This document shows, in pieces, positions 46,490 to 48,324 of a stretch of 48,920 bases of DNA. Positions within the stretch are counted from its first letter, which is position 1, and every line of letters begins with the position of its first letter. The position numbers were made by a program, and so were the translations under genes. Origin of the DNA: Gemmatimonadales bacterium (GTDB lineage: Bacteria; Gemmatimonadota; Gemmatimonadetes; Gemmatimonadales; GWC2-71-9); contig JBFJHJ010000024.1 of assembly GCA_041613315.1 (NCBI GenBank), positions 1 through 48,920 on the forward strand, read 5' to 3'. The notes under the pieces were generated by a model. That model worked only from the letters and a program-made list of their open reading frames with translations. It had not been told where the DNA came from and made no database searches.

Positions 46490-46522
46490 GGCGCCTCGGG
46501 GGGGTGATCTCCCCGGGGCGCC
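46490..46522. terminator. GC-rich hairpin after the DUF1028 gene
   Basis: GGCGCCTCGGGGGG...CTCCCCGGGGCGCC, 7 nt after the stop at 46482; weak U tract. Confidence 0.55.
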
Positions 46523-46617
46523 ACCTGATGCTGCGGTCAGATGTCCGACACGCCCCGATCGTGCAGCGTGTCGGAACGTCCGTCCGTCTTAGTACATCCC
46601 GCCCATGCCGCCGCCCG
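46490..46617. repeat. Direct repeat copy 1: displaced groEL 3' end, 3' UTR and terminator
   Basis: Matches 48193-48324 with 5 substitutions and short indels; the minus strand encodes [12 protein letters not shown]. Confidence 0.95.
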
Positions 46618-46618
46618 C

Positions 46619-46647
46619 TGGCGCTCCCGTTTCCGGCCCCGTATGTT
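46619..46647 (+). promoter_or_regulatory. Putative promoter TGGCGC-N17-TATGTT for the SBP56 gene
   Basis: TATGTT at 46642-46647; -35 weak. Confidence 0.35.
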
Positions 46648-46854
46648 GCTGCCGCCCGGAGCTCCCGCCTCCGAGTGGAAGCGCATGGCCGCCCGTTCGG
46701 GCTCCCCGACGTTCTGCAGCCGCAGAACGACTGACTCACCTGACTTCGCGTCACCTGAGCCGTCCTCAGGCTCGCGTCCATCGCTGGGCGTTGGCGGGCT
46801 GATGTTCCTTCTGCAAAGGTCGCTCTGGTTCCCCATCCACCGCTGGAGGTACCT

Positions 46855-48075
46855 ATGAATCACAGGGTGCTCGCCCTGGCAATCCCGATCGTGGCGACTG
46901 GGCTGTTCGGCGCCCTCCGATCCGGCCGTCCGCCTGCCGACGAGTCGGTCTTCACCAAAGGGCTCAAGGCTGGCGAGCGCGAGACCATTCTCTACGTCTG
47001 GACCCGAGACGCTGACCAGCAACAGAGCGACTTCCTCGCGGTTGTGGACGTGAATCCCCGGTCTACGACCTACGGCCGGGTCATCGCCACCGTTCCCACG
47101 AACTCGCCGGCCAACGAAGCGCACCATTTTGGCTACACCGCAAACACGGACCGCATCGTCGGTGGCGGGCTGTTCTCGAATCGGCTCTTCATCTACGACG
47201 TCAAGACGGACCCGCGGCGGCCGAAGCTGCTCAAGACGGTGGATCTGAACCCCACCGGCTACAGCGGTCCCCATACGATGTACGCGGTTCCGGGCGGAGT
47301 GATGCTCGCGATGCTCGGTAAAGTGGACGGCGGTGGACCGGGTGCGCTCGTTCTGGTTGATGACGACGGGAACTTCAAGCAGGCCTGGCCGGTGGTCCGT
47401 CCCGACGGTGCGCCCGGATTCATGTACGATGTGGGGGTCAAGCCCGAAATCAACCGAATGATCACGTCGAGTTGGTCCCATCCCGGGCACATCAAGGCCG
47501 GCGACCACCCCGCGCACTCGGGAAAGGACGTGGTCGTGTGGGATTGGAGAGCGAAGAAGATCCTCCAAGTCGAGGCACTGGACCTCGCGCCACTCGAGGT
47601 GCGCTGGATGCATGGCCCGAGCGGACTGGGGGGCTTCACCAATGCCGCCTTCGGGAACAGCGTGTGGTACTGGGAGGACGCGGATGGGGACGGCCGGCTG
47701 GCGTTCCATCGCGTGATCTCGCTGGGCGAGGGTGCGACCCCCGCCGACATGCGCGTGAGCTACGATAACCGGTATCTGTACGTCTCCCTGTGGGGAGCCG
47801 GAAAGGTCCAGCAATACGACATTGCCGACCCTGTGCGTCCGAAGCTGGTGAGCGAGGTCGCGATCCCGCAGCCCAACATGATGAAGCTGTCGCCGGACAG
47901 CCGCCGGCTCTACGTGACGAACTCGATCCTCTCGTCCCTCGACGGCAACGTCCGGTTCGGGGTGTGGCTGCTCCACGTGGGGCCGCAGGGCATGAGCGTC
48001 GACGCGGGGTTCACGCCCGACTTCGAGCACTTTCCGACCGGGCCGGGCGGGCCGCATGACATGCTGCTGAAGTAA
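46855..48075 (+). CDS. Secreted selenium-binding protein SBP56 / methanethiol oxidase-like beta-propeller
   Basis: SD GGAGG; signal peptide; LYVW, DFLAVVDV.P.S.TYG.VI, NEAHH, GPHT, S.D.R.LYV repeats, GPHDM. Confidence 0.85.
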   Translation: MNHRVLALAIPIVATGLFGALRSGRPPADESVFTKGLKAGERETILYVWTRDADQQQSDFLAVVDVNPRSTTYGRVIATVPTNSPANEAHHFGYTANTDRIVGGGLFSNRLFIYDVKTDPRRPKLLKTVDLNPTGYSGPHTMYAVPGGVMLAMLGKVDGGGPGALVLVDDDGNFKQAWPVVRPDGAPGFMYDVGVKPEINRMITSSWSHPGHIKAGDHPAHSGKDVVVWDWRAKKILQVEALDLAPLEVRWMHGPSGLGGFTNAAFGNSVWYWEDADGDGRLAFHRVISLGEGATPADMRVSYDNRYLYVSLWGAGKVQQYDIADPVRPKLVSEVAIPQPNMMKLSPDSRRLYVTNSILSSLDGNVRFGVWLLHVGPQGMSVDAGFTPDFEHFPTGPGGPHDMLLK

Positions 48076-48189
48076 TCGGGAATCGTCCGCGGGGGCATCG
48101 GGCGAGGCGCAGGCGATCGGGTCCGGAACCCAGCGCCCCCGGGTACACCCGGCTCCCGAGTGAGGCGCCTGTTCACGCCGTCCAGAGCG

Positions 48190-48220
48190 AAACGCCCCGG
48201 GGGGTGATCTCCCCGGGGCG
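48190..48220 (-). terminator. groEL terminator (probably bidirectional)
   Basis: CGCCCCGGGG-loop-CCCCGGGGCG followed by TTT on the minus strand. Confidence 0.65.
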
Positions 48221-48324
48221 CCACCTGATGCTGCGGCCAGACGTCCGACACGCCCCGATCGTGCGGCGCGTCGGAACGTCCGTCCGTCCGTCTTAGTACA
48301 TCCCGCCCATGCCGCCGCCGCCCG
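48193..48324. repeat. Direct repeat copy 2: actual groEL 3' end, UTR and terminator
   Basis: Matches 46490-46617. Confidence 0.95.

Follow-up and report, generated by a model that had tools for sequence, protein, structure and literature searches.

The duplicated 3′ end of groEL

The DNA under study is contig JBFJHJ010000024.1 (C24) of a Gemmatimonadales bacterium (assembly GCA_041613315.1); its whole length of 48,920 nt is called the window. The source genome is a metagenome bin of 2.63 Mb with 70% GC and 83% completeness. At the right end of the window groEL and a DUF1028 gene converge on an intact gene of the SBP56 family (Table 1). This gene lies between two direct copies of the groEL 3′ end, which align over 121 columns with 93.4% identity (blastn, E 7e-47), and the two groEL stop codons are separated by 1,704 bp. 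Each copy comprises the last 27 bp of groEL, a long stem-loop of the 3′ UTR and most of a terminator-like hairpin. Folding of these RNA structures gives z scores of −3.8 to −5.5.

Table 1. Features at the right end of the window.
Feature	Position (nt)	Strand	Basis and remarks
DUF1028 + TPR gene	45478..46482	+	PF06267, E 3e-68; adjoins groEL directly in empty-site relatives
Terminator-like hairpin, displaced copy	46490..46522	.	RNA fold; between DUF1028 stop and old groEL end; 14-bp stem on + strand
Displaced copy	46499..46615	-	Alignment; last 27 bp of groEL (stop 46589-46591), UTR stem-loop, most of terminator hairpin
Non-coding lead-in of cargo gene	46616..46854	+	GGAGG at 46845-46849
SBP56-family gene, 406 aa, intact	46855..48075	+	PF05694, E 1e-68
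Spacer, cargo stop to groEL terminator	48076..48198	.	Sequence; no homologue found
Terminator-like hairpin, gene-attached copy	48193..48220	.	RNA fold; TTTCG next on groEL strand
Gene-attached copy: working groEL end, UTR stem-loop, terminator arm	48199..48319	-	Alignment
groEL 3′ part	48293..48920	-	PF00118, TIGR02348; gene cut by contig end

The core of the repeat differs by four substitutions and one 4-bp indel (CGTC). Its extension to nt 46492 and 48193 adds one substitution and a 1-bp indel, and a CCG unit differs at the edge of the Gly run. A preliminary description of the window had reported this repeat with the same list of differences and had named an SBP56-like gene as the only gene between the copies, and both statements are borne out. 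It had also reported that the identity stops abruptly in the run of Gly codons. The stop is probably not quite abrupt: the displaced copy reads on in frame as A-P-A (nt 46616–46624), like the intact tail but with other codons.

A genome-wide blastn search with the repeat, which the same description had proposed, gave two copies only among the matches listed, the next best having E 0.007. A search with the whole cassette gave no third copy in the 83% complete genome.

All four core substitutions have G or C in the gene-attached copy and A or T in the displaced copy, and in the metagenome run X1 the displaced copy carries a further C>T change at nt 46600. On the groEL strand the UTR of the attached copy folds with −71.5 kcal/mol (z −5.5) and that of the displaced copy with −57.5 kcal/mol (z −4.0). 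The hairpin of the displaced copy was not called by a simple terminator scan. Hairpins similar to that of the attached copy come after groEL in relatives too, and the flank of the attached terminator (nt 48180–48220) resembles the groEL terminator of genome G135 (L255) over about 30 bases; G135-like sequence is also present in runs X2 and X4. Rfam and promoter and terminator scans gave no matches. In the lead-in and the spacer, tblastx and blastn comparisons with all collected loci and the genome gave low-complexity noise only, with no remnant of an integrase or of a neighbour gene.

Empty sites and the direction of insertion

The DUF1028 gene and groEL lie in one locus in 11 other genomes and 2 metagenome contigs. 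The distance between their stop codons is 61–142 bp in 8 of the 11 genomes and 168 bp in both contigs, so that the site is empty there; these genomes belong to other genera, the collection containing no congeneric one. In the other three genomes different genes occupy 660–1,732 bp between DUF1028 and groEL, and no repeat of the groEL end was found with them. Comparison of relatives for an empty site or for different cargo had been suggested in the preliminary description, and both are present.

Measured from the DUF1028 stop of the window, the displaced groEL stop comes after 106 bp and the working one after 1,810 bp. The distance of the left copy is the ancestral one, and this copy is therefore most likely the old chromosomal end of groEL, to which 1,704 bp were added. 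The earlier proposal of an insertion that gave groEL its 3′ end back, with a displaced copy remaining at the far side, is thus supported. The insertion is old, because the copies differ by 4 substitutions in 117 bp, as against 0–2 differences per 1.6–2 kb among the runs.

The same scar at other genes

The source genome was scanned for direct repeats within a contig, of at least 80 bp and at least 85% identity. In 4 of 4 such repeats one copy lies at the 3′ end of a gene and a decayed copy lies downstream; the scar is not special to groEL. A 97-bp duplication of the end of a 308-residue gene surrounds an arylsulfotransferase-family gene (C26:6859-8547). The end of an M14 peptidase gene is duplicated over 102 bp around a 774-residue CBM60-containing gene (C51:5625-8621), and that of an FMN-reductase-family gene over 246 bp around approximately 600 bp (C8:20766-21876). 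For the peptidase an empty site is also available, as it adjoins terC without the cargo in genomes G008 and G013. No junction motif is common to the groEL scar and the other three, and the substitution bias is absent from these three (13 GC>AT and 14 AT>GC changes).

The same architecture recurs in 1.75 Mb of collected loci, which overlap one another and over-represent these hot spots. In 390 kb taken without bias from G013 and G008 there is one 232-bp repeat, so that any rate for the family would be a rough estimate. In a Longimicrobiales locus (L129:2647-6675), a 60-bp duplication of a carboxyltransferase 3′ end surrounds genes for an SBP56 protein, a GMC oxidoreductase and a gluconate-2-dehydrogenase subunit 3. 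At another locus (L137:3964-6117), a stretch from the interior of a DUF1264 gene is repeated over 119 bp with 96% identity, once upstream of an SBP56 homologue and once within the intact gene downstream.

The repeats in C51, C8 and L129 stop within about 1 base of the stop codon. Around the stop, 14 of 15 bases are the same in the C51 and L129 scars, and the frequency of such a pair among 2,325 gene ends is 2e-5. A shared site motif was nevertheless rejected: the three other close pairs of the 12-mer in 36 genomes are not duplications, and the groEL scar is without the motif. Upstream of the identity blocks some likeness remains at the protein level, namely A-P-A at groEL and DREGA versus ERVGA in C51 (C51:8497-8520), with differences mostly at third codon positions. 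These protein-like readings could come from an older, more diverged donor allele or could be chance.

Other inserts behind groEL in relatives

In genome G023 (L231:10200-14124) groEL is followed by a cargo gene, decayed pieces of two usual neighbours, a 37-bp piece of groEL, a terminator, another gene and then the intact neighbours. The two decayed pieces come from a 134-residue gene and a metallo-beta-lactamase-fold gene, and both are internally deleted. The displaced groEL piece begins at QNAAS, about 125 bp upstream of the stop, while the copy in the window begins 27 bp upstream. The next two genes of the host itself are not an expected part of an integrase island, so the G023 insert looks like a captured chromosomal allele rather than such an island, and its neighbour pieces and different groEL start point to homology-driven capture. 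It bears on the window by analogy only, because the spacers of the window insert hold no recognisable neighbour remnant.

Two further rearrangements were observed behind groEL: a duplicated 39-bp terminator around two genes in G018 (L245:12287-13943), and a groEL 3′ UTR of which 76 bp are repeated in tandem in G085 (L275).

Search for an integrase, an attachment site and a donor

Genes behind groEL were collected from 90 family loci, a sample of the phylum, with up to three genes per locus before the first usual neighbour. None of the resulting 131 proteins is an island-type integrase. No related integrase-bearing element was found at the same groEL att position in these loci, and the G023 piece starts elsewhere. 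The sole recombinase in the scan is a broken integrase in genome G577, and a tblastn search of 60 loci, each up to 14 kb long, with XerD as query found this match and no other. In that locus (L230:3700-13990) the 5′-truncated, broken gene abuts the groEL terminator, and behind it small genes extend over about 10 kb with attC-like repeats of about 150 bp between them. From its motifs we take this integrase to be of the integron type. As a groEL-targeting integrase it was rejected, for it is broken and integron-type, and the genome contains no second groEL end.

Within the unit itself there is no integrase. The source genome has one tyrosine recombinase, whose best match is XerD, and no serine recombinase was found in its 83% complete sequence; the search for a tyrosine recombinase recommended earlier thus gives XerD only. 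The attC consensus of integron cassettes is RYYYAAC...GTTRRRY. No such motif was seen by eye at either junction, and Rfam gave no match at E<=1.

The groEL-tail pattern is present in 279 of 401 genomes (a tally that includes G543 and G459). Genomes with several matches were considered as further cases of displaced copies and rejected, since in the 19 examined (G027, G525 and G526 were left out of this set) every copy lies on a groEL paralogue, once on a truncated groEL. The truncated gene (L191, G566:C13) encodes about 90 residues and the GGM tail, and its genome has two further groEL ends. Prophages that would use the tail as att were likewise rejected: of eight viral-contig matches, seven are on groEL genes of distant organisms, and none is accompanied by a second copy or an XerD-like match. 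The repeat of the window gave 0 matches in the metagenome contigs searched. The preliminary description had taken the GGM tail of groEL for a dedicated attachment site. This reading is not sustained, as no island-type integrase is found in 90 loci and the same scar is present at three unrelated genes without a shared motif.

A donor allele was sought around SBP56 homologues. In none of the 29 close family homologues is groEL within 1.5 kb, and among 63 loci with flanks of up to 6 kb groEL is near SBP56 in one, a gammaproteobacterial contig without the repeat. About 940 bp separate groEL from an SBP56 homologue with 61% identity in this contig (L179:5917-9746); the two genes converge as in the window and enclose a cupin gene, and the arrangement is probably independent. 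The loci of the close homologues share neither a groEL repeat nor non-coding DNA with the unit. No account of groEL islands or of such scars in Gemmatimonadota was found in a literature search that had most subscription journals outside its scope.

Origin of the insertion

The 1,704-bp single-gene insertion with its 121-bp target duplication was, with fair probability, made by host homologous recombination, either as a RecA single crossover or as homology-facilitated illegitimate recombination. The donor would be DNA of a very close relative that bears the groEL end, the terminator and an SBP56 gene behind it. This DNA would enter the cell, possibly by transformation, which is possible since genes for ComEC, DprA and RecA are present. 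The source genome contains members of the RecA, DprA, ComEC and Ku families, the presence of which alone does not show competence. Two routes could then lead to the scar. The fragment could be end-joined to a circle, for which a Ku gene is present, and a single RecA crossover would follow in the shared 121 bp. Alternatively, a homologous crossover in groEL could be combined with a microhomology join in the GGC run. Either route would restore groEL and displace the old end downstream. The displaced end would have decayed since, and its hairpin would still serve DUF1028.

Several observations agree with host recombination. The site is empty in most relatives and carries other cargo without a groEL-end repeat in the rest; three more duplications of gene 3′ ends lie at unrelated genes with no junction motif in common with groEL; the G023 insert has captured neighbour pieces and a different groEL start; and the 90 loci lack an island-type integrase while RecA, DprA, ComEC and Ku are encoded. 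Precedents are available in E. coli and in long target duplications (PMC3240628, PMC2853133). When DNA with one-sided homology was introduced into E. coli, a duplication was found in 56 of 60 clones, with 109–950 bp in the 14 sequenced, and the available text of that report attributes the duplications to recircularisation and a single crossover (PMC3240628). The accessible part of the other describes long target duplications at insertions that lack other mobile elements, mostly from naturally competent species (PMC2853133).

Against host recombination stand the missing donor allele in 29 close homologues and 63 loci, the spacers of the insert without a neighbour remnant, and the 83% completeness of a genome that has no congeneric one for comparison. 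All four scars involve 3′ ends, which integrases favour too. In staphylococci the 3′ end of groEL has been proven to act as attB, as stated in the available text of PMC8125051, and homology-facilitated illegitimate recombination usually yields deletions, not duplications, according to PMC3240628 as available. Moreover, the four A/T-ward changes out of four fit copies that were identical at origin and hence also copying in place.

A decayed integrative element is a rather unlikely alternative, though one that has to be taken seriously. In this account an island with a tyrosine or serine integrase inserted into the groEL 3′ end and lost everything except SBP56, leaving a CIME-like remnant. A restored gene with a displaced 3′ end is the very product of site-specific integration, the event is old and leaves time for loss, and groEL serves as attB for staphylococcal PICIs, as far as the available text describes (PMC8125051). 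Yet no such integrase stands behind groEL in the 90 family loci, neither spacer has an integrase remnant, and the staphylococcal att overlap is 18 bp, not 121. The copies of the tail pattern in the 19 multi-match genomes all belong to groEL paralogues, once truncated, and of the 8 viral-contig matches 7 fall on groEL genes from distant organisms, where a second copy is lacking. Four islands at four genes would be needed, each shrunk to about one gene with both ends kept.

Copying in place, which would dispense with a donor groEL, is improbable. Under a template-switch model, fork stalling or break repair at the terminator hairpin would be followed by a switch to SBP56 DNA and a return about 120 bp earlier at the GGC run. 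The two boundaries do lie within a strong hairpin and within a triplet run, respectively, the A/T-ward direction of all four changes fits identical copies at origin, and no donor allele was found. A connection of long target duplication with double-strand breaks is also made in the accessible text of PMC2853133. On the other side, G023 contains donor-type neighbour fragments, and the C51, C8 and L129 repeats end approximately at the stop codon, as expected where homology with a related donor ends.

It is very improbable that the unit is a minimal cassette that is still active and moved in trans by a recombinase from another locus, mobilisation in trans having been considered in the preliminary description. 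The unit is compact with an intact gene, and the SBP56 homologue of L129 is also inside a 60-bp duplication of a gene 3′ end. But the copies are 93% identical with the left one still mutating, L129 differs in gene and in cargo ends, and no homologue locus has non-coding DNA in common with the unit. The genome shows XerD only and no serine recombinase, no close SBP56 homologue is accompanied by the groEL repeat, and the repeat is absent from the metagenome contigs searched.

An assembly artefact can practically be dismissed, even though the sequence comes from a metagenome bin and none of the listed unitigs crosses both outer flanks, because the copies differ at several positions and, on either side, unitigs of three runs connect the cargo with letters specific to one copy, with depths of 6–10 like those of the flanks; the divergence of the copies had been used in the same sense before. 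The runs that hold the stretch are marine metagenomes. Those with the unitigs (X1, X2 and X4) come from one study and may be the source samples of the bin. One unitig of X4 spans nt 46586–48319, one of X2 spans nt 46586–48228, and X1 has one across nt 46543–48228 and another across nt 44500–46528; no single unitig in these runs reaches across both outer flanks. The insertion is present in 3 of 3 well-covered runs, and a 340-bp piece of SBP56, which differs at one position and has a depth like that of the flanks, is present in a run from a second study. In contigs, the depths of cargo and flanks are 6.1 and 9.7/7.5, 8.4 and 9.0/7.8, and 10 and 6.8/6.2. This ratio was rejected as a copy-number signal, as it varies both ways.

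Comparison with known systems

The scar is of a known kind, the insertion with long target duplication described by Furuta, Abe and Kobayashi in 2010 (PMC2853133). As in the cases given in the available text of that paper, the insert is shorter than 20 kb (here 1,704 bp) and without a mobility gene, the direct repeat exceeds 30 bp and is unique in the genome (here 121 columns in two copies), relatives have the empty site, and some repeats overlap a gene 3′ end too. The groEL scar is the same scar type but not a restriction-modification unit: the published cases, like the screening criterion, concern restriction-modification genes, whereas the cargo here belongs to PF05694, and the genomes that show the empty site here are all of other genera rather than strains of the same species.

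Foreign DNA flanked by a duplication, of 109–950 bp in E. coli, is likewise the outcome of a single crossover with recircularised DNA or of homology-facilitated illegitimate recombination in the available account of PMC3240628. For Vibrio T6SS arrays, displaced 3′ remnants were ascribed to the same kind of process in the accessible part of PMC5361080. The former was a plasmid system in the laboratory and the latter concerns polymorphic toxin loci, while the donor and the route of the groEL unit are hypothetical, as is any present mobility.

The staphylococcal PICIs at groEL, such as SeCISE48, share the target gene and leave groEL unaltered after insertion at its 3′ end. They differ in having an integrase and phage-parasite genes and an att overlap that is the last 18 bp of the gene, as far as described in PMC8125051, while the groEL unit has no integrase and a 121-bp block that includes the UTR and the terminator.

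As a single locus the window shows an ordinary scar of gene gain, useful as a caution and for comparison. Where a gene end is displaced and no integrase is present, an att site should not be the default reading, because four scars at unrelated genes in one small genome, together with the captured fragments of G023, point to host recombination. Such scars are datable and countable cases of insertion with long target duplication, the mechanism of which is left open in the available text of PMC2853133. If a dedicated host factor rather than plain RecA drove the captures, they would represent an undescribed gene-capture pathway that would explain long target duplication beyond restriction-modification genes. 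A broader generalisation, which we regard as quite unlikely, is that Gemmatimonadales gain single genes, often for exported proteins, mainly by an integrase-free route anchored on the 3′ end of any upstream gene, with about 1.5 dated scars per Mb and with groEL as a recurrent anchor because it is so conserved.

The SBP56-family cargo

The 406-residue product of the cargo gene is likely exported, judging from its hydrophobic N-terminus. Its structure match is 2ECE (E 2e-40). W207 corresponds to one conserved tryptophan of 2ECE, and the tryptophan of the 2ECE motif STWD aligns to Leu; the two tryptophans of 2ECE are presumably its TTQ pair. H90, H91, H140 and H401 are invariant in 15 of 15 aligned homologues, and they are paired with His89/90/140/412 of PMC5739008 by pattern and not by direct alignment. 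The cargo thus resembles MtoX/SBP56 (PMC5739008, PDB 2ECE), as far as described there, in the PF05694 domain, in the HH...H...H pattern of the proposed copper ligands and in its likely export. It differs in its score for NF052453 (MtoX), which at 202.6 bits is below the cut-off of 650, and in its neighbours, which are DUF1028 and groEL, with no SCO1/SenC or mauG gene directly beside it. By sequence it is methanethiol-oxidase-like and keeps four likely copper histidines, but it fails the MtoX cut-off. The protein is likely an exported copper beta-propeller enzyme acting on a small thiol or similar substrate.

A comparison of GC3 inside and outside the unit had also been proposed earlier. The composition is only mildly atypical: GC3 is 0.84, at the 5th percentile of 1,654 called genes, GC is at the 4th and the codon score at the 22nd, these gene calls being approximate as they come from a custom codon-score caller. 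The genome has no second SBP56 copy, and none was found in G013, the closest relative. In the family SBP56 is patchy, with matches in 129 of 400 genomes at E<=1e-20, of which about 37 are better than 1e-100. The nearest homologues are 73–78% identical and mostly from Gemmatimonadota. A quick tree places the cargo in a group of eight rows (seven besides itself) with a support of 99, again mostly Gemmatimonadota, and indicates no donor. The group is a Gemmatimonadota-centred branch of SBP56 that retains the likely copper ligands without the MtoX gene context.
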